Shown one piece after another: positions 13,222 to 38,493 of a stretch of 64,000 nt of DNA. Numbering within the stretch: the stretch's first letter is position 1; the number at the start of each line of letters is the position of its first letter. The position numbers and the translations under genes are program-made. The stretch lies in the NCBI RefSeq assembly GCF_003790525.1, contig NZ_CP033635.1. The stretch is one strand, 5' to 3'. Source of the stretch: Escherichia coli (lineage in GTDB: Bacteria; Pseudomonadota; Gammaproteobacteria; Enterobacterales; Enterobacteriaceae). Under the pieces are notes generated by a model that worked only from the letters and a program-made list of their open reading frames with translations, was not told where the DNA came from and made no database searches.

Positions 13222-15978
13222 TTACCCGAGAATTTTGCTGGCTTCGCGCGCTACATTATCCATCTCGTCTAACAGTTCCAGCAGCTCCGGCTCCAAATCT
13301 TCTTCTTTAGTACCGCTACGTAGCTGTTGTTCGATCAGTTGGCAGAGATTTTTCATACGCGGCACACCGCTATAGCCGCAACTGCCATGCAGTTTATGAA
13401 TCAAATCAACCAGGCCTTCCGGGTTTTCTCCAACCAGCTGTTCCTCAACTTTGTTGCGAACTTCAGGCAGGAAATCGAGTAACATTTGCAGCATATCGCG
13501 CGCTAAATCGGTTTTTCCTGCTGCCTGGCGTAGTGCCAGTTGCCAGTCGAGGGTCGCATTCGGGTTCACCACAATTTCGTTGACTTCGGGCGTCACGACG
13601 CGAGAGGAAATACCGCTGCCAGGCTTATAGCGCAACAACAAATTATGCAATCGCTCTTCTTCAATCGGTTTCGCCAGATAATCGCTCATCCCTGCGCCAA
13701 GCAGCTTCTCTTTTTGCCCGGCCATTGCATGCGCCGTTACCGCGATAACCGGCGTTTGTTGCTGATGGGGGAGCTGGTGGATGAGTTCGCAGGCCCGAAT
13801 GCCGTCCATGTCCGGCATTTGAATATCCATTAAGATCAAATCGAACGGCATCTGTTTCGCCCGTTCAACCGCCTGATGCCCGCTATCGCAAAGTTCCACA
13901 TGTTGCACCATATCTTCCAGCAATGCGCCGATAAGTTTCAGGTTAGCGGGGTTGTCATCAACCGCCATGACTGTCATTGCCAGCTTACTTTCATCGGTTA
14001 CAGGCAAAAGCGTGTTTTGTTTGTGATGACAAAATTCCGTCAGGGCAGGTAACAGGCGCGTAGGTGTTAATGGTTTCAGCAGACACGCGCCGATACCATC
14101 TTGCTTAAGTTTTTCAGCATTGACTTGTGCATGGCAAGGAAGTGCCAGCATCAGAAAATCGGTCATCGATACTGCTTTCGCTAATCGCTCATGTTGCATT
14201 GTTAGCGGCTCGCGGAAGGTCACCGCGATGCCTAACAACATCATGTCGTAATGCGCGGGAGGCAGCGCGGAGAACGTTGGGCTATAAACCACTTCCAGCG
14301 GCGTTTCACTTAAAATATCCAGCGTGCATTGCGCTGCTGCGGAGTTTGGTTCGACATAGGCCAGGCGCTTACCGGCGAGGCACTGGGTGGATGGCCCTTC
14401 GATAATAATGTTCGGGTTCAGATCGAGATTAATGTGGAACCAGAAAGTTGAACCACGATTCGGCTGGCTATGGAACGAAATATCACCGCCCATTTCATTA
14501 ACCAGTTTTTGTGTAATCACCAGCCCCAGCCCGGTGCCACCATGACGGCGGGAAATACTGGCATCAGCCTGTCTGAAGGCCTGGAATAAGCGCGATTGGT
14601 CGCGTTCAGGAATACCAATGCCGGTATCCCGAATCTGCACTTCAATTTGCACTTTGGTATTACTCAGCGCACGTTTTTCTACCAGAATATCAATGTTGCC
14701 ATTCTCGGTGAATTTAATTGCATTCCCCACCAGGTTAGTGATGATTTGCTGTAATCGTAGTGGGTCGCCGATAACGTTATCAGGCACGTCGCTTTTAATA
14801 TTGAGCGTCAGTTCCAGCCCTTTATCGTGAGAAGAATGTGCCAGCAGGGTAACGACTTCATCCAGCGTGCTGCGTAGTGGGAATGGAATACTTTCCAGAA
14901 TCAGCTTACCTGCTTCCAGTTTCGAGAAGTCGAGAACATCATTAATAATTGCCAGCAAATTATTTGCCGAACGTTCAATCGTATTCAGGTGATCGCGCTG
15001 CGTTGGTGTTAATTCTGTTTTCAGCGTCAGGCGGGTAAAGCCAATAACACCATTCAGTGGTGTACGCAGCTCGTGTGACATATTTGCCAGAAACTCGGAT
15101 TTAATACGCGCCGCTTCCTGGGCGCGCTTTTTCGCCAGATCCAACTCAACGTTCTGAATTTCCATCTGCTCCAGCGTCTCACGCAGATCGGACGTCGCCT
15201 GGTCGATATTGTGTTGCATCTCTTCGTGATAAGCCGCCAGCGACATTGCCATCGAGTTGATACCGTTTTTCAGCATATCCAGCTCGCCGAGCATAAATCC
15301 TTCCACCCGGCTGTCGAGTTGCCCGCGACGGATGCGGTCGACGGTATTCACCATGTTGCGAATCGGGCCGGTAACATCGCGCATTAAGCGCCAGCCAAAA
15401 ATAAGCGCAATACCGATACAAAACAGCATCATCACGCTGGAAATAAAGATCTCTTTATATTGCTGCAAGCGAACCGATTTAAGATCCAGCTCCAGCGCAA
15501 TATATCCCAGCATATTTTGACTATTTTTGGCATCGCTACTGGGCGATTCGTCGGGGGAGTAACTTTCAGAAATAATCGGCGTGCGGAGGATCATTATATC
15601 GCCGTCACGAGTGACAGTGAGCTGGCGAGGAAACGGCACGTTGCTGCCGAGCTGCATTGATGAGGGATCAAGATGAAAATTGGAGGTGACAAAGAGTCGG
15701 TTATTTTCATCATAAACCGAAATCGCGCGAACAATATCAGAATGGCGACGATGCAGTACGCTTATTAACTGACCGATAGATTCGCGATTTTGCAGACTCA
15801 TGCCATATTCAGTAGAAACTGCAAGCGGCTCAATAATGCTGGCACCGGCATCTTCCAGTTGACGCTGCAAGTCGTTATAGCGATGCACGACGAAAAAGAT
15901 ACTCAGCAATAAACCAATAAGGACGGTCGGTGCCAGGATCAGAATCATCATGCGTGCGCGCAGGCTGTAGTTGGTCAT
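13222..15978 (-). CDS. barA: hybrid sensor histidine kinase BarA
   Basis: 918-aa ORF with HAMP, HisKA (SHELRTPLN), HATPase, receiver and HPt domains. Confidence 0.95.
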
Positions 15979-30371: not shown

Positions 30372-31379
30372 TTATCGGTAGCGTTTTTGTAGACTGGCAG
30401 GAAGATAACGCTGTAATGGGGATGGCGTTTCACCTTCAATCAGTTGCGAAATAAGTTCAAAGCAGTGAAAAGCAAGTTGGCGATTATCCTGTTGTATTGT
30501 GTCGATTCTTACCGAAAGTGAATCATACAAGTAATGATCATCAAAACTCGCCAGGTGGATTTTACTGTCGAGTAAATTATATTGGCTCATATAGCGCAGA
30601 ACGCCTTCCAGTAATCCACAAGCGGCAGTGAATAAGGCTTTAGGGGGACGTCCTAAACGAGCGCATAGCGCGGCAAACATTTCATAGCCTGAGCTCGGAT
30701 GATAATTACCGTGAATAATCCATTCAGGTTGTAGCGTTACTCCGGCTTGCTGCAAGCCTTGTGTAAATCCTTCCAGTCGATCGCGAGTCGGTGACAAACG
30801 GGGTTGTCCGCCCAGAAAATAGAATTCATCCGGGTGACTCCGTGCAATATCTGCCACCAGAGCGGCGGTGGGAGAAACAGAGTCAGTAATGACCAATGGC
30901 AATGTGCTGCCGTTCATGTGGCGATCGAACAACACAACAGGTAATTGCTCGCTAAGTTTTTGATAGTCATTATCATGCAGCATACTGGATGCGACGATTA
31001 ACCCATCAACCTGGCGGGCAATCATATTGTTCACCACCATTGTTTCCTGTGAAGGATTTTCATCAGTACAGGATATGAGGAGTTGGACTCCCGCTTCCCG
31101 ACACAATGTTTCCAGTTCATGGGAAAATACTGCAAATCCGTAGTTAGTGATTTCAGGAACGACGAGACCAATGGTGTGACTGCGGTTGTCCCGTAATGAG
31201 CGGGCATGAATGCTGGGCTGATAATGCTGCTGTTGGGCAATACTCAGCACACGCTCACGCGTTTCCTGCGCAACACGTAACTCTTTGCCACGACCATTGA
31301 GAACCAGACTGGCGGTTGCTTTCGACACTCCCGCCAGTTCAGCAATGTCTTTAATAGTAACGCGTTTGGTTTTTCTCAC
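30372..31379 (-). CDS. scrR: LacI-family sucrose operon repressor
   Basis: 335 aa; N-terminal HTH ([22 protein letters not shown]) plus periplasmic-binding-like fold; last gene of the scr cluster. Confidence 0.8.
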
Positions 31380-31404: not shown

Positions 31405-32814
31405 TCATTCTACCATGCAGGCGCGTAGCGACCAGTAGTGTAACGTGACGTCAGACTCGCCCTGTAATATCAGCGAAGCTGGATGATGGGGAAAATAACG
31501 ATTGCTCATTACGCCTTCGCCATTATTGATGAATATCTCTATGCTGGAACTGTCACAGAGAATCTTCAGTGACGTTACGCTTCCTCGCCAGTAACGAGTT
31601 AGTTTCTCTTGCCCTGCAAGGCTTTTCCTCTGTAGTTGAATACCATCGTCATTAAGATGCAGTGCCAGTGCGTTGCCAAAATTCAGATGTAGCTCGCCTG
31701 ATGGAATGATGTCCATTTCCAGACGTTCAATTGCGACAGGCGGCGCATGATCCGCTTTTCCTTGCCAGAAGTGTTCAGCTTCACGCAGTTGCGCGAGTTC
31801 CCTGATTGGCATCTGAAATAATTTTCCCTTCTGGAATGAGAGTTCGCGAAAACAGGTCATTTGATGCTGCCAATGATGCTTTCTGGTTGGTTGCAACATC
31901 TCTTCGCCATCAGGAACCCCCATCCAGCCGACCAGTAATCGTCGCCCGTCCGGGGCTTCCATCGTCTGTGGTGCATAGAATTCAAATCCCGCATCCAGCT
32001 CTGAGAAAGCGCCATGCGTAAATTTGCCTGTCTCGTAATCAAACTGTCCATGTAGCCAGGCGCAGGGATAGGTATTCAGATAGCGCTCATGTTCGCGCGC
32101 CATTCCCTGGGGGCAGCAGAGGAGAATGTATTCACCATCAAGGGCGAAAAGATCAGGACATTCCCACATGTATCCTGCGTTATCAATTTCATTCAGACCA
32201 TTACCAGCAATTTCTCCATGAAAAGACCAGGTATAGAGATCGACAGAGGAATACAGCAGCACTTTCCCCCGTTTCTCTTTATCTTGCGCGCCAAGCACCA
32301 TGTACCATCGGCTGTTGTGCTTCCAGACTTTTGGATCACGAACATGTCCGGTGTAACCATCAGGTAACGGTATGACAGGGCCTAATTTATCAAACCCGCC
32401 CTGGTTATTTTCGGTGGCCAGACATTGCCATGCCGTTCTGCTGCCATCATCAAACTTAACATTACCGGTATAGCAAAGTGTGAGAACGCCCTGATTATTA
32501 ACCGCGCTTCCTGAGTAACAACCATTACGGTCATACTCTTTATCGGGCATTAGCGCTAATGGTTCATGCTGCCAGTGCAATAAATCCGTCGAACTCCAGT
32601 GCCCCCAACATTTGTACTTATGATTACAATCCAATGGATTCCACTGATAAAACAGATGATAGCGGCCTCCTGACCAGCAAAAGCCATTTGGATCGTTCAT
32701 TAGTCCGGTGACGGGAGCGAGATGCCAACAAGGATAGTGGGCATCTGCCTGTGCTTTGGACTGACCTTTCATCACTGCCTGTAAAATCGCGGGCATTTGT
32801 GAAGGCATCGACAT
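31405..32814 (-). CDS. scrB: sucrose-6-phosphate hydrolase (GH32 invertase)
   Basis: 469 aa with GH32 NDPNG catalytic motif. Confidence 0.85.
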
Positions 32815-34184
32815 TACTCCTCGTCTGTTTTGTATTTGAGCAATAAAGAGAGACTAAAAGCGACAGCGAAAGCAATCACCATTCCAATAATATAATTAAC
32901 CAACGATGTTGGCTGAACGATTGCCATGCCGGGTATTGCGGTCAGACCAACGGCAGTCATATAAACGTGAACAGAGACAACCCAGGCACCGCCGGCAGCG
33001 CCACCAATTAAGGCCGCAATAAAAGGTTTAACAAAACGAAGGTTGATACCAAAAATAGCGGCTTCAGTAATCCCTAACATTGCGGAAAAAGCCGAGGGTA
33101 GGGTGATTGCTTTAATTTTTGTATCTTTGGTTTTAAACCATACCGCCAGACATGCACCGCCTTGCGCAACGTTTGCCATTGCCCAAATAGGCAGCAGGAA
33201 ATTAACACCGATTGCAGGGTTACCTAAAAGTCCTGCTTCAATTGCGTGGAAGCTATGATGAATACCCGTAATAACAATCGCTGAATATAGCCCGCCGAAT
33301 AACAACCCCGCTAACCAGCCAGCGTGTGCAATCAGCGTGCTGAGAACGAAAGAGATACCATCACCTAACGCTCGCCCTGCCGGACCAATAATTAAAAGAG
33401 CGATAAAGCCAGAAATGACGACAGTCAGAAATGGCGTCAGAATGAGATCCAGAGCATCAGGGATAAACCTGCGTAACTGTTTTTCCACTATGCTCATAAA
33501 CCATACTGCCAGAAGCACGGGGAAAACCGTTCCCTGATAGCCAATCATGGCGATTTCAAAACCGAAGAAGTTCATTGTCTGAAATCCCGCAGCAACGCCC
33601 CAGGCATTTGTGAGTGCCGGGTGAGTCAGAATCCCTCCTAATGTCGCGCCAAGATAAGGATTTCCACCAAATTCACGAGCAGCAGTAAAGCCAATCAGGA
33701 TGGGGAGAATAATAAATGCGGCTGAACTGCACATATCCAGCAGGATATAAATCGCATTATCGGCATTCACCCAGCCATATGTTTTCACCATTCCCAGAAG
33801 CCCCATTAATAAACCAGAAGCAACAATGGCAGGAATGATGGGGACAAAAATATTAGAAAGCAGCCGTGCTATTCGCTGAAAAGGATTGAGTTTTTGAGCG
33901 GCGAGTCGAGCGGTATCTGCTTTACTGGATTCGCTAATACCCGCAACCTGAATAAAGGCAGCATAGACTTTATTAACCACGCCGGTGCCAAAGATGATCT
34001 GCATTTGCCCTGAATTACGAAAACAACCTTTCACTCCATCAATCTGGCCAATGGCATGTTGATCGGCAAGTGTGTCGTCAACCAGTACCAGCCGTAGGCG
34101 AGTGGCGCAATGTGCTGCACTGGCGATGTTCTCCTTACCACCTAATAAAGGAAGCAACGATTGGGCGATTTTATCGAAATCCAT
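32814..34184 (-). CDS. scrA: PTS sucrose-specific EIIBC component
   Basis: 456 aa; N-terminal EIIB Cys motif (CATRLRL) followed by polytopic EIIC. Confidence 0.85.
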   Translation of the reverse strand: MDFDKIAQSLLPLLGGKENIASAAHCATRLRLVLVDDTLADQHAIGQIDGVKGCFRNSGQMQIIFGTGVVNKVYAAFIQVAGISESSKADTARLAAQKLNPFQRIARLLSNIFVPIIPAIVASGLLMGLLGMVKTYGWVNADNAIYILLDMCSSAAFIILPILIGFTAAREFGGNPYLGATLGGILTHPALTNAWGVAAGFQTMNFFGFEIAMIGYQGTVFPVLLAVWFMSIVEKQLRRFIPDALDLILTPFLTVVISGFIALLIIGPAGRALGDGISFVLSTLIAHAGWLAGLLFGGLYSAIVITGIHHSFHAIEAGLLGNPAIGVNFLLPIWAMANVAQGGACLAVWFKTKDTKIKAITLPSAFSAMLGITEAAIFGINLRFVKPFIAALIGGAAGGAWVVSVHVYMTAVGLTAIPGMAIVQPTSLVNYIIGMVIAFAVAFSLSLLLKYKTDEE

Positions 34185-34244: not shown

Positions 34245-35786
<1,542 letters not shown>

Positions 35787-35805
35787 TTATAAAAATTGCT
35801 AAAAT

Positions 35806-35879
35806 GCTAAACCGGTTTAGGTGTTGATAATAAAGCTGACTTTTTAGCCAGAGCAATTATTTTCGCTAAACCGATTTAG
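35806..35879. promoter_or_regulatory. two palindromic operator-like sites (gctaaaccggtttag at 35806-35820; gctaaaccgatttag at 35865-35879) in the scrY promoter region
   Basis: near-perfect LacI-type palindromes TAAACCGGTTTA in the scrK-scrY intergenic region. Confidence 0.55.
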
Positions 35880-35929
35880 TAAATGTGACAGGCACGACAA
35901 ATCGGGTTACAGATACAACAGCAGGATCA

Positions 35930-36850
35930 CTATTGTGAAGGGAGATCGTGTTGTCGGGGTAAGGCGGTTATCGCGCCTTTAGCCGTGGTCGCCAGAGCAC
36001 CACAAATCTGAGCTTGTGCAATGATTCGTTCAAGCTGTCTGGTATTTGTTGGTATTCCAGAATCAGCCAGACCTGCAAGTAATCCAGCGACAAAAGCATC
36101 TCCTGCCCCGGTCGTATCGACGACAGAAACAGGTTTGGCGGGATAGTGGATAAACTGCCCCTGAAAATACACAAGTACGCCATTTTTTCCTTGTGTAATA
36201 AGCAATAAAGTCAACGAATAACGTTGTACTAATGAATATGCGCCTTGCTGAACCTGGCTTTCGCCACTGATGAATAGCAACTCTTCTTCGGACAATTTAG
36301 CGATATTCGCCAGCGAAAGTGCGCGATCAAGGTATTTCCTTAATAGCGCTTCACTCTGCCAGAGATCGCTGCGGATATTGGGATCAAAACTGATGTTTCC
36401 GCCAGCCTGACGTATTTTCTCCATAGCCAGAAATGCGGTACTTCGGGAAGGTTCTGCACTGAGCGCAATGGAACAAAGATGGAGCCATTCACCCGGCCCA
36501 AATGCAGGAAGGTCACCAGGTTGTAAAAAAAGATCGGCACTTGGGCGTACCATAAAGGTAAAGTTTCTTTCTCCTTGCTCATCAAGTCCTACAGCCACAA
36601 TTGAGGTGCGTTGTTGAGGATCAAGAGACATATAATGTGTATCAACATTTTCTGTACTCAGTGTCTGATACATAAAGCGACCGAAAGGATCATCGCCAAC
36701 TTTGCCAATAAAGGCACTTTTCCCCCCCAGCCTTGCGATACCGACTGCAACATTAGCAGGCGCCCCGCCAGGACACTGTAGTAGTCTCCCCTGGCTTTCG
36801 GGTAATAAATCAACAACCGCATCACCGAGTACCCATACTCTTGCGCTCAT
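35930..36850 (-). CDS. scrK: fructokinase (PfkB family)
   Basis: 306 aa with PfkB signature (DTTGAGDAF). Confidence 0.85.
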   Translation of the reverse strand: MSARVWVLGDAVVDLLPESQGRLLQCPGGAPANVAVGIARLGGKSAFIGKVGDDPFGRFMYQTLSTENVDTHYMSLDPQQRTSIVAVGLDEQGERNFTFMVRPSADLFLQPGDLPAFGPGEWLHLCSIALSAEPSRSTAFLAMEKIRQAGGNISFDPNIRSDLWQSEALLRKYLDRALSLANIAKLSEEELLFISGESQVQQGAYSLVQRYSLTLLLITQGKNGVLVYFQGQFIHYPAKPVSVVDTTGAGDAFVAGLLAGLADSGIPTNTRQLERIIAQAQICGALATTAKGAITALPRQHDLPSQ

Positions 36851-36870
36851 AAAGGCTCCAATATACTAAT

Positions 36871-36897
36871 TGCTAAACTAATTAAATCGGTTTAGCA
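36871..36897. promoter_or_regulatory. inverted repeat tgctaaac-N11-gtttagca upstream of scrK (operator-like)
   Basis: shares the gctaaac half-site with the scrY operator-like palindromes. Confidence 0.45.
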
Positions 36898-37014
36898 ATT
36901 AAAGCATAAACGCTGCTCAGGAGAGAACAATATTCAGCAGTGGTTACCCGGTATTTTGTGGTGGAAACGTGAATATGCCGGGATTAATCATCTACCCGGC
37001 ACTGTTTATCTCAC

Positions 37015-38493
37015 TTACGCATTCGACCAGCTCTGGATCGAATCTTCATTCCCCAGCTCACCATGCATCACTTCATACGATTTTTTCAGGATCACATCAG
37101 TGTGCTTGGTTAGGTCTTTGAAAATGCCTTTATTCATCGCGTCGTAGCGTTTGGCGTTGCTCTCAACAGGCATAAAGATATCTTTCACGCGAACCATTTT
37201 GTCGACAGCCGTTGCGTAATCCGGGTATAGCCCCAGACCTGCCGCCGTATTGATCGCAGCCCCCAGACTTGCACAACCATTAATGGCGTTTCGGCGTGCC
37301 GGAAGGTTGAACACGTCGGCAAAAATCTGCATAAACAGATCGCTGTTCGAACCGCCGCCAGTAATGATCACATGCTTTGCAAAGTGATTCATTTCATTAC
37401 ACATATTGTCGTAATTGTTCTTCAGCGTCAGCGCCACGCTTTCCAGTATCGAACGATATATCCATGCGTAATCCATGCTGGAATCAAAGCCGATCATAAT
37501 CCCGCGTTTGTATGGTTCCCACGGATTGGTCAGCCAGTCCAGCACCGTCATCAGACCATTACAGCCAGGCGGCACACAAGACGCTTTTTTGTTGAGCAAA
37601 TCTTCCGGTGAAAGATCCTGTGCTTTGGCATCCTGAATTAACGACTCGCCTAGCATGTCGCGTAGCCAGCTCACCGTCCACATGCCTTTGCGAATACCGT
37701 AACCTTCATACAGCAAGGTTTGCGGAATAGAAGACATAATCGGCCAGTACGCTACCGGATCTTTCGGCAGTGCTTTGCCGTTCATCATCAACGCGATGTA
37801 AGTGCCAAGAGAAATTACCGCCGTTTCATCATCCAGTAACCCTGCTCCCAGTGCTTCTACCGGTTTATCACTGGTGGTACAAACAACGGGCAGTCCAACC
37901 GGGAAATGTGTCGCCAGCGCGGCTTGTGGTGTGATATGCCCAAGAACAGTGCCCGGCATTTGCACATCAAAAAGCATCTGTCGGGGAATATTAAACTTCT
38001 CCATTACCGCGGTATCTTCGCTCCATGCCCAGGTCTTATAATCCACCGGCCACTGACCAAAATAGTTGGCGATATTGTCTTTAAACTCGCCGGTTAAACG
38101 GTGTGTCAGATAACCTGAAAAAGAGGTGACATATGCCACATCAGGATTGGTGTGCTCGTAGGGACGTGTAACGCGTGCATCCTGCCAGCTAATCAACGGC
38201 GCAGCTGGCGTGCCATCGGCTTTCAATAACGCACGGCAGCAACGGATGGATCCCAGACCAATACCGACAATATCTTCTTTATTTCCGGCAAACTGACTCA
38301 TCAAATCGTGACCGGCAAAACATAATGATGCCCATAAATCGTCGTCAGGATGTTCTGCGGTATCGGCATCTGGCGTGTGCATCGGCTGCAATAAGCCTTT
38401 GCCTTCGCAAACCACATTACCTTCCAGATCATACATCACCACTTTTGTGCTCTGACTTCCGCCATCAATCCCTATGATGTATTTTTTCGACAT
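37015..38493 (-). CDS. ygcE: FGGY-family carbohydrate kinase
   Basis: 492-aa FGGY kinase; conserved K-12 position. Confidence 0.85.
   Translation of the reverse strand: MSKKYIIGIDGGSQSTKVVMYDLEGNVVCEGKGLLQPMHTPDADTAEHPDDDLWASLCFAGHDLMSQFAGNKEDIVGIGLGSIRCCRALLKADGTPAAPLISWQDARVTRPYEHTNPDVAYVTSFSGYLTHRLTGEFKDNIANYFGQWPVDYKTWAWSEDTAVMEKFNIPRQMLFDVQMPGTVLGHITPQAALATHFPVGLPVVCTTSDKPVEALGAGLLDDETAVISLGTYIALMMNGKALPKDPVAYWPIMSSIPQTLLYEGYGIRKGMWTVSWLRDMLGESLIQDAKAQDLSPEDLLNKKASCVPPGCNGLMTVLDWLTNPWEPYKRGIMIGFDSSMDYAWIYRSILESVALTLKNNYDNMCNEMNHFAKHVIITGGGSNSDLFMQIFADVFNLPARRNAINGCASLGAAINTAAGLGLYPDYATAVDKMVRVKDIFMPVESNAKRYDAMNKGIFKDLTKHTDVILKKSYEVMHGELGNEDSIQSWSNA

Follow-up and report, generated by a model that had tools for sequence, protein, structure and literature searches.

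The two scr promoter regions of the E. coli DNA analysed here (a stretch of 64 kb, hereafter the window) very probably contain three operators for ScrR, the cognate LacI-family repressor. Each of them would be contiguous, and the pair of half-sites standing 11 bp apart upstream of scrK would consist of the left half (L) of one such operator together with an extra, directly repeated copy (R2) of its right half. Judged by its letters and by its counterparts in other species, the scrK operator itself is an ordinary contiguous site at 36881-36896. The spacer of 11 bp is only apparent, because a normal contiguous operator is trailed, 3 nt on, by the extra right-half copy.

The scr genes lie between queE and ygcE on the E. 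coli chromosome, with scrK and scrYABR on the minus strand (Table 1). The window is 100% identical to the chromosome of E. coli SMS-3-5, and the region is carried by ~990 of the 5426 complete E. coli genomes. It is the same locus as that described in PMC11251922, which puts scr beside queE and whose primer scrK43F matches positions 36961-36983. The closest solved relatives of the ScrR protein encoded here are Cra proteins (1.5e-44), and the hinge motif of the family was found in it, the behaviour of the linker being beyond the reach of sequence alone. Both the hinge motif and the kinship with Cra fit a dimer that binds a contiguous palindrome with a central CpG. The presence of this FruR/Cra-like gene at the end of the operon agrees with the proposal, made in the first-pass annotation, that both scr promoter regions carry putative LacI-family operators.

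Table 1. Genes, putative operators, candidate promoters and extra half-sites of the scr locus, in window coordinates
Feature	Position	Strand	Details
scrR, cognate LacI-family FruR/Cra-like repressor, end of operon	30372-31379	-	TIGR02417, 462.8 bits (cut-off 389.55)
scrB, sucrose-6-phosphate hydrolase	31405-32814	-	
scrA, sucrose PTS IIBC	32814-34184	-	
scrY, sucrose porin (LamB-type), first gene of scrYABR	34245-35762	-	100% identical to E. coli 'carbohydrate porin'
R2 after scrY O2	35798-35803	-	sense TTTAGC, 2 nt past the 16-mer
scrY operator O2, gene-proximal (putative)	35806-35821	-	sense CCTAAACCGGTTTAGC; 28.3 bits, 1 mismatch
scrY core promoter (predicted)	35827-35856	-	-35 TTGCTC 35851-35856, 18-bp spacer, -10 TATTAT 35827-35832; read from sequence
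scrY operator O1, distal (putative)	35865-35880	-	sense ACTAAATCGGTTTAGC; 25.2-26.3 bits, 2 mismatches
CRP-like site abutting O1 (putative)	35881-35902	-	sense ATTTGTCGTGCCTGTCACATTT, TGTCG-N6-TCACA
scrK, fructokinase	35930-36850	-	NF006957, 506 bits
R2 after scrK operator	36872-36878	-	sense GTTTAGC; with 36890-36896 makes the N11 palindrome
scrK promoter, model A (candidate)	36875-36903	-	-35 TTTAAT 36898-36903, -10 TAGTTT 36875-36880
scrK operator, contiguous 16-mer (putative)	36881-36896	-	sense GCTAAACCGATTTAAT; 25.6-27.4 bits, 3 mismatches

All the sites sit 5' of the minus-strand genes scrY and scrK. On the plus strand they read gctaaaccggtttag (35806-35820) and gctaaaccgatttag (35865-35879) near scrY and, near scrK, tgctaaac (36871-36878), 11 nt and gtttagca (36890-36897). 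These three palindromes, already listed in the first-pass annotation, could be read directly at their positions and are far above chance. The bare 7-mer GCTAAAC was not enriched across the window (6 copies found, 7.9 expected), and four of the six copies fall within the two scr promoter regions. The ideal 16-mer GCTAAACCGGTTTAGC, with up to 3 mismatches allowed, was matched four times in 64 kb against an expectation of 0.22, a number reached by none of 100 shuffles; the matches start at 35806 (1 mismatch), 35865 (2), 36881 (3) and 13502. The last of these lies inside an ORF of 918 aa, scores 10.7 bits and was treated as chance. We also built a weight matrix of 20 nt from 82 distinct sites of other species (68 loci), the window being excluded, and scanned the whole 64-kb window with it. 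Exactly three sites were returned, at 35804-35823 (28.3 bits), 36879-36898 (27.4/25.6 bits) and 35863-35882 (26.3/25.2 bits), the next best scoring 10.7 bits, so that, by a matrix derived solely from other species, the scrK operator falls in the same range as the scrY sites. All three are contiguous inverted repeats of 14-16 bp, of the type (G)CTAAAC-CG-GTTTAG(C), with a central CpG.

The scrK site repays a closer reading. Embedded in the 'spaced' palindrome is a contiguous 15/16-mer copy at 36881-36896 (plus strand ATTAAATCGGTTTAGC), which a repeat search groups with the scrY sites (family D2). The sense strand runs TTGCTAAACCGATTTAAT-TAG-TTTAGCAATTAG, that is, a perfect L, a CpG centre, a right half (R1) that is degenerate at its outer positions, 3 nt, and a perfect second right half, R2. 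The wide palindrome drawn here by the first-pass annotation is therefore half right: its outer arm is real and proves to be a conserved third half-site, but the element was mis-parsed and the contiguous 16-mer inside it was missed. As an inverted repeat the region has perfect arms of 12 bp (36867-36878 / 36890-36901), or arms of 17 nt at 88%; arms of at least 12 with a spacer of at most 15 are expected 0.03 times per window in first-order Markov surrogates, while arms of 8 bp alone are expected ~18 times per window and are hence unremarkable. Five further E. coli alleles, of which one is on a plasmid, differ in the scrK operator at position 7 at most.

For a comparison across species, 18 ScrY proteins were aligned and 80 scrY loci were fetched from GTDB genomes, one per species, of which 68 were kept because scrK lies directly upstream of scrY in the same orientation. 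Given the shared ancestry of these loci and the horizontal mobility of the scr cluster, locus counts overstate the number of independent events. Exactly one contiguous 16-mer was found at -32 to -62 from the scrK start in each of the 68 other loci, and two 16-mers were found 5' of scrY in nearly all of them, 56-60 bp apart (mostly 58-60). In K. pneumoniae ATCC 13883 (locus L030), which belongs to the species whose ScrR operators were established by experiment, GCTAAACCGGTTTAAT precedes scrK while CTTAAACCGGTTTAGC and ACTAAACCGGTTTAGC precede scrY, at the same positions as the three sites of the E. coli locus. The 'unusual 11-bp spacer' had been taken to imply a distinct binding mode or a second regulator; with a conventional 16-bp operator at 36881-36896 that has an orthologue in 68/68 loci, this reading is not borne out in that form, since one contiguous operator stands before scrK in every species examined and no unusual binding mode is needed.

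The scrY control region closely resembles what has been published. The core of O2 is a perfect 14-bp palindrome (35807-35820) that overlaps the predicted scrY transcription start, and its counterparts in other species lie at -55 to -63 relative to the scrY ATG. O1 lies directly 5' of the predicted scrY -35, at 59 bp centre-to-centre from O2, so that the two operators bracket the predicted -35 and -10 hexamers, whose orthologues (TTGC.. and TA...T) are found in the loci of other species. A block of the form ttTG...N...TCACA is kept directly 5' of O1 in nearly all loci, at the place of the putative CRP-like site. This arrangement agrees with PMC11251922, which states that the scrY -35/-10 is flanked by two 14-bp inverted repeats for which there is mutational evidence as ScrR operators (citing Cowan 1991; Jahreis and Lengeler, 1993), that the downstream repeat overlaps the start site, and that fructose or fructose-1-phosphate is the inducer that releases ScrR (citing the same two papers). 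The sites are described there as ScrR-specific operators (citing Jahreis and Lengeler, 1993), and physical binding by ScrR is reported, within the literature cited there, just for pUR400 and K. pneumoniae. The 2024 study also found the scrY operator sites conserved across eight species including E. coli, in an alignment of the scrY promoter alone (PMC11251922). Comparison with published ScrR operators, which the first-pass annotation had suggested, thus yields a match in form and position for both scrY sites. ScrR is further known to repress both the scrK and the scrY promoters (PMC4521459).

Where the scrK promoter lies is less readily told. A consensus promoter scan gave just one weak match at scrY, overlapping O1, and nothing convincing at scrK, the number found being within shuffle expectation. 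For scrK we therefore turned to a cross-species tally of consensus hexamers, which has no null model behind it. Two models are about tied in the window: model A (Table 1; score 9.0), whose 17-bp spacer is made up of 1 nt and the operator and in which R2 would cover about -7 to -2, and model B (score 8.5), with -35 TTGTTC at 36925-36930, a 16-bp spacer and -10 TATGCT at 36903-36908. An NAnnnT hexamer abuts the 16-mer in 42 of the 45 distinct loci that bear R2, 16-18 nt after a -35-like hexamer, and in Kosakonia, Phytobacter, Yersinia and Brenneria a good -35 (TTGATT/TTGCTT) stops 1 nt before the operator while TAnnnT starts right after the 16-mer. If, as these loci suggest, the 17-bp spacer is taken up by the operator and the -10 is flanked by R1 and R2, L would stay outside the transcript.

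Seen against known systems, the locus is closest to the enterobacterial scr regulon (pUR400 of Salmonella, K. pneumoniae), with which it shares the gene order scrK / scrYAB-scrR, a FruR-like LacI-family repressor, a pair of sites around the scrY -35/-10 and a single site at scrK, which has its own ScrR-controlled promoter. Nothing essential differs from these classical regulons, the right half of the E. coli scrK operator being weaker, with 3 mismatches between the operator and the ideal 16-mer as compared to 2 in K. pneumoniae. The half-site of Cra, GCTGAAAC, is a relative of GCTAAACC, and in a typical Cra site one half is well conserved and the other degenerate. A similar asymmetry is seen here, as the left half is perfect at scrK and the right half at O1 and O2, although Cra (FruR) operators differ from ScrR sites in the sequence of the half-site. 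CytR binds inverted octamers 10-13 bp apart and also direct repeats (PMC3454398). Formally the L-N11-R2 pair and the R1/R2 repeat look alike, being inverted repeats about one helical turn apart and direct repeats, but CytR owes its flexibility to an unstructured linker and to its cooperation with flanking CRP dimers, whereas ScrR has a standard hinge motif and every ScrR site has a canonical contiguous operator with a central CpG. Two good half-sites about one helical turn apart, as expected of a spaced operator, do occur (TGCTAAAC-N11-GTTTAGCA), but a spaced operator would be one with no contiguous site available, and here the 16-mer at 36881-36896 is embedded in it and kept in all species. 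CcpA, likewise of the LacI family, binds cre-var sites with variable spacers and a 6-bp core palindrome, TGTAAA/TTTACA (PMC5263246). The likeness lies in a core palindrome with a variable spacer; the differences are that CcpA is a Gram-positive global regulator that needs HPr-Ser-P, and that its spaced site replaces the canonical cre instead of overlapping it.

The one small detail left to account for is R2. Extra half-site copies are not mentioned in the accessible scr literature; the supplements of the LacI-regulon paper list ScrR regulogs without site sequences, and the Photobacterium scr paper has nothing on operators. At scrK, an exact TTTAGC occurs 3-6 nt (mode 4) downstream of the 16-mer in 49 of 67 distinct neighbourhoods, which come from E. 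coli, Kluyvera, Klebsiella, Raoultella, Enterobacter, Citrobacter and Lelliottia as well as from Edwardsiella, Cedecea, Phytobacter, some Kosakonia, Mangrovibacter, Yersinia and Brenneria. At scrY, the window has CCTAAACCGGTTTAGC-AT-TTTAGCA, and of 63 distinct neighbourhoods 22 have an exact R2 at offset 2 from O2; they come from E. coli, Enterobacter, Citrobacter, Lelliottia, Yersinia and Brenneria. The copy was also seen in the Rouxiella-type loci L075 and L077. No extra copy was found beside O1 (0/57), none in the opposite orientation at any operator examined, and none on the upstream side, save for a TTTAGC 5' of the scrK operator in 2 of 67 neighbourhoods.

At scrK the presence of R2 anticorrelates with the quality of R1, the extra copy occurring where the operator's own right half is degenerate. 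Where R1 reads TTTAAT, TTTAAC or ATTCTTC, R2 is present in 44/44 loci, and where the outer hexamer of R1 is an intact TTTAGC (Pantoea, Erwinia) it is present in 1/17, both counts being a tally from listings over loci that are not phylogenetically independent. R2 remains an exact TTTAGC although the neighbouring bases have diverged freely, the 4 nt that separate R1 from R2 being hypervariable within Enterobacter; an information profile is circular for the R2 columns, the loci having been selected on R2, and is not counted as evidence of conservation. The side, orientation and distance of R2 relative to the 16-mer are fixed (offsets 3-6 at scrK, always 2 at scrY O2), while the distance from R2 to the ATG is widely variable and its place relative to the promoter is not the same at the two genes (~-7 to -2 at scrK, ~+18 to +23 at scrY). 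Being tied to the operator and not to promoter or ATG, R2 would have to do with the binding of ScrR and not with RNA polymerase, ribosome or transcript. We also considered R2 as the right half of a second, overlapping operator and rejected this, as the left half that would be required, ATTTAATT, matches GCTAAACC at only 3 of 8 positions. The shift between R1 and R2 is just 8-10 bp, and a second ScrR dimer on R2 would for that reason clash with the one bound to the operator.

R2 may give one DNA-binding domain an alternative or additional contact, it may serve a CytR-like stretched L-R2 mode, or it may do nothing at all. In the stretched mode a single ScrR dimer would sit on L (36890-36896) and R2 (36872-36878), about one extra helical turn apart, with R1 as a relic or as an alternative register. 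All 49 scrK neighbourhoods with R2 keep the L...R2 inverted repeat, the conservation of R2 exceeds that of the outer R1 positions, and Yersinia and Brenneria have a very degenerate R1 (GATTCTTC) with an intact R2; within the family, CytR (PMC3454398) and the cre-var sites of CcpA (PMC5263246) offer precedents. However, nearly all species keep the inner R1 sequence CG-GTTTA and its central CpG, as expected for insertion of a hinge helix, ScrR has the usual hinge motif and its closest solved relatives are Cra proteins, and the distance from GCTAAA to TTTAGC ranges over 13-16 nt, a variation of 3 nt between species. Moreover, Rouxiella-type loci have a degenerate R1 without an exact R2, and R2 is also present beside O2, which is already a perfect palindrome. 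Given the conserved core of R1, the hinge motif, the variable distance between L and R2 and the copy at O2, we consider such a mode improbable, at least as the main one. R2 could also be a neutral relic of an old tandem duplication of the right half, inherited with a mobile gene cluster. Direct repeats 8-10 bp apart are the pattern that slippage would create, the horizontal mobility of the scr cluster (PMC11251922) and shared ancestry inflate the counts, and R2 has been lost in Pantoea and Erwinia and, at O2, in the lineages of K. oxytoca, Raoultella and Kosakonia, all of which have retained the operators. It is nevertheless hard to see why a relic should keep TTTAGC exact in lineages whose ScrY proteins are just 62-65% identical and whose non-coding surroundings have diverged, or why stray copies on the other side or in the other orientation should be missing at every operator save for the two upstream cases among the 67 scrK neighbourhoods; a relic is accordingly unlikely. 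Against a minor variant of this account, in which a second regulator recognises the wide palindrome, it counts that no other known motif was recognised there and that the spacing is variable.

Nor does the wide palindrome look like a nucleic-acid structure, be it a 5' stem-loop in the scrK mRNA that affects stability or translation, or a DNA cruciform, instead of a protein site. Were transcription to begin at 36901 or further upstream, the leader would form a stem of 12 bp (-12.7 kcal/mol, z = -3.4), yet a start at 36896 gives an unremarkable fold (z = -1.3) and a start at 36891 abolishes the hairpin; by the promoter tally, most species that bear R2 have their -10 between R1 and R2, which would leave the left arm untranscribed. 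A conserved stem with a loop of variable length fits a hairpin better than it fits a rigid protein site, and the extension of the stem beyond its core is slightly, if marginally, above a permutation null (0.87 vs 0.61 pairs, P ~0.02). Against this, arms of 12 bp are peculiar to this E. coli lineage and broken in strain F11, the invariant left arm leaves no room for covariation and none was seen, and the fold of the scrY leader does not surpass that of its shuffles (z = +1.0). No Rfam match was found in 35600-37100 at E<=1. A functional hairpin or cruciform is thus very improbable, and R2 is probably not the arm of an RNA hairpin. We lean, tentatively, towards R2 as a putative auxiliary contact for ScrR, although the clash of dimers noted above counts against it. 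The more specific proposal, that ScrR makes functional use of the third half-site, either by the stretched L-N11-R2 mode or by one domain switching between R1 and R2, and that a conserved tripartite L-R1-R2 arrangement at the scrK operator and at scrY O2 tunes repression or induction, has a small chance of being correct.

In the scheme that we favour, three contiguous ScrR operators with R2 as an accessory, each operator would offer a 16-bp palindrome, GCTAAACC|GGTTTAGC, with a central CpG, the geometry suited to a LacI-family dimer with a hinge helix. At scrY, O1 and O2 would bracket the -35/-10, with O2 covering the start site, and at scrK the single operator would lie on the core promoter, most likely filling the spacer between -35 and -10. 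From this placement at both promoters, bound ScrR is predicted to exclude or trap RNA polymerase until it is released, as the literature has it, by fructose or fructose-1-phosphate. R2 would be a conserved accessory of the two gene-proximal operators (scrK and scrY O2), offering a perfect TTTAGC where an operator half is weakened and so stabilising or repositioning one DNA-binding domain; it would not be the partner of a stretched palindrome.

The ScrR operators described here are already known biology, to which R2 adds one small unexplained detail. The control region through which ScrR acts in the classical pUR400 and Klebsiella regulons is present in the chromosomal scr locus of E. coli as well, and the practical value of the analysis is a corrected annotation, in which the scrK operator is the contiguous 16-mer and not an 11-bp-spaced site. 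Should ScrR indeed use the third half-site, this would extend the flexible use of operators known from CytR to the sugar-repressor branch. If R2 affects the occupancy by ScrR, it would provide a modest but clear-cut case in which accessory half-sites tune a LacI-family repressor, and such an effect, if true, would be relevant to engineering sucrose-inducible expression or faster growth on sucrose in E. coli.

Every class of scr operator was consistently asymmetric across the scrY loci L001-L080, taken from GTDB genomes with one locus per species. In the scrK operator the left half GCTAAA was invariant (41/41 distinct sites) and the outer right half was weak; in both scrY operators, O1 and O2, the right half TTTAGC was invariant and the left half lacked its outer G. 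In every class it was the half more distant from the other scr promoter that was perfect. The window also contains two further matches (see table), of which the left-type half-site in the scrY promoter is found only in E. coli, is not kept in other species and is probably due to chance. The 16-mer resembling a ScrR operator, scored with a weight matrix built on the operators of other species, is located inside a 918-aa ORF (13222-15978, minus strand) and was likewise taken as a chance match.

Features in and around the scr region
Feature	Position	Strand	Sequence	Remark
CRP-like site	35881-35902	minus	ATTTGTCGTGCCTGTCACATTT (sense)	abuts scrY O1
Extra left-type half-site	35842-35848	minus	GCTAAAA	inside scrY -35/-10 spacer
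scrY leader segment	35788-35803		TTTAGCAATTTTTATA (sense)	
scrK leader segment	36862-36877		TTTAGCAATTAGTATA (sense)	
ScrR 16-mer lookalike	13502-13517		GCTAAATCGGTTTTTC	3 mismatches, 10.7 bits
GC-rich hairpin	36978-37000		GCCGGG...CCCGGC	after ygcE stop

In the scrY loci, over the 30 nt preceding O1, the TCACA half and the ttTG left half of a CRP-like site were kept in nearly all 68 species; if scrY transcription starts near 35820, the centre of this site would lie at about -71.5. It may be different from the site in the quoted description, or its conservation may be understated there. A direct-repeat search of the E. coli window revealed 88% identity over 16 nt between the scrY and scrK leaders, in segments that take in R2 (an extra copy of the right half downstream of the scrK operator and of scrY O2) and the bases after it. 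This likeness may reflect chance or local gene conversion, since the similarity around R2 showed no extension in Citrobacter or Enterobacter loci.

Other arrangements of the locus were also encountered. In the Rouxiella-type loci (L075, L077 and L072) scrK and scrY are divergent and share one intergenic region with one site for each gene, that of scrK being GCTAAACCGGTTCTTC and that of scrY GGAAAACCAGTTTAGC followed by AATTTAGC; no O1-type site was found in these loci at ≤3 mismatches. In four loci of Pantoea eucrina, P. ananatis and P. stewartii (L044, L045, L057 and L064) the region upstream of scrY yielded no scrK homologue, and ScrR-type sites were present upstream of scrY in 3/3 of these scrK-less loci that were scanned (L044, L057 and L064).

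Homology among E. coli scr alleles is lost upstream of about 36945, and homology with the copies on IncF plasmids, which are 97.6% identical to the window in a match that ends at 36971, likewise breaks down there. The mobile scr module has one of its boundaries at this breakdown.
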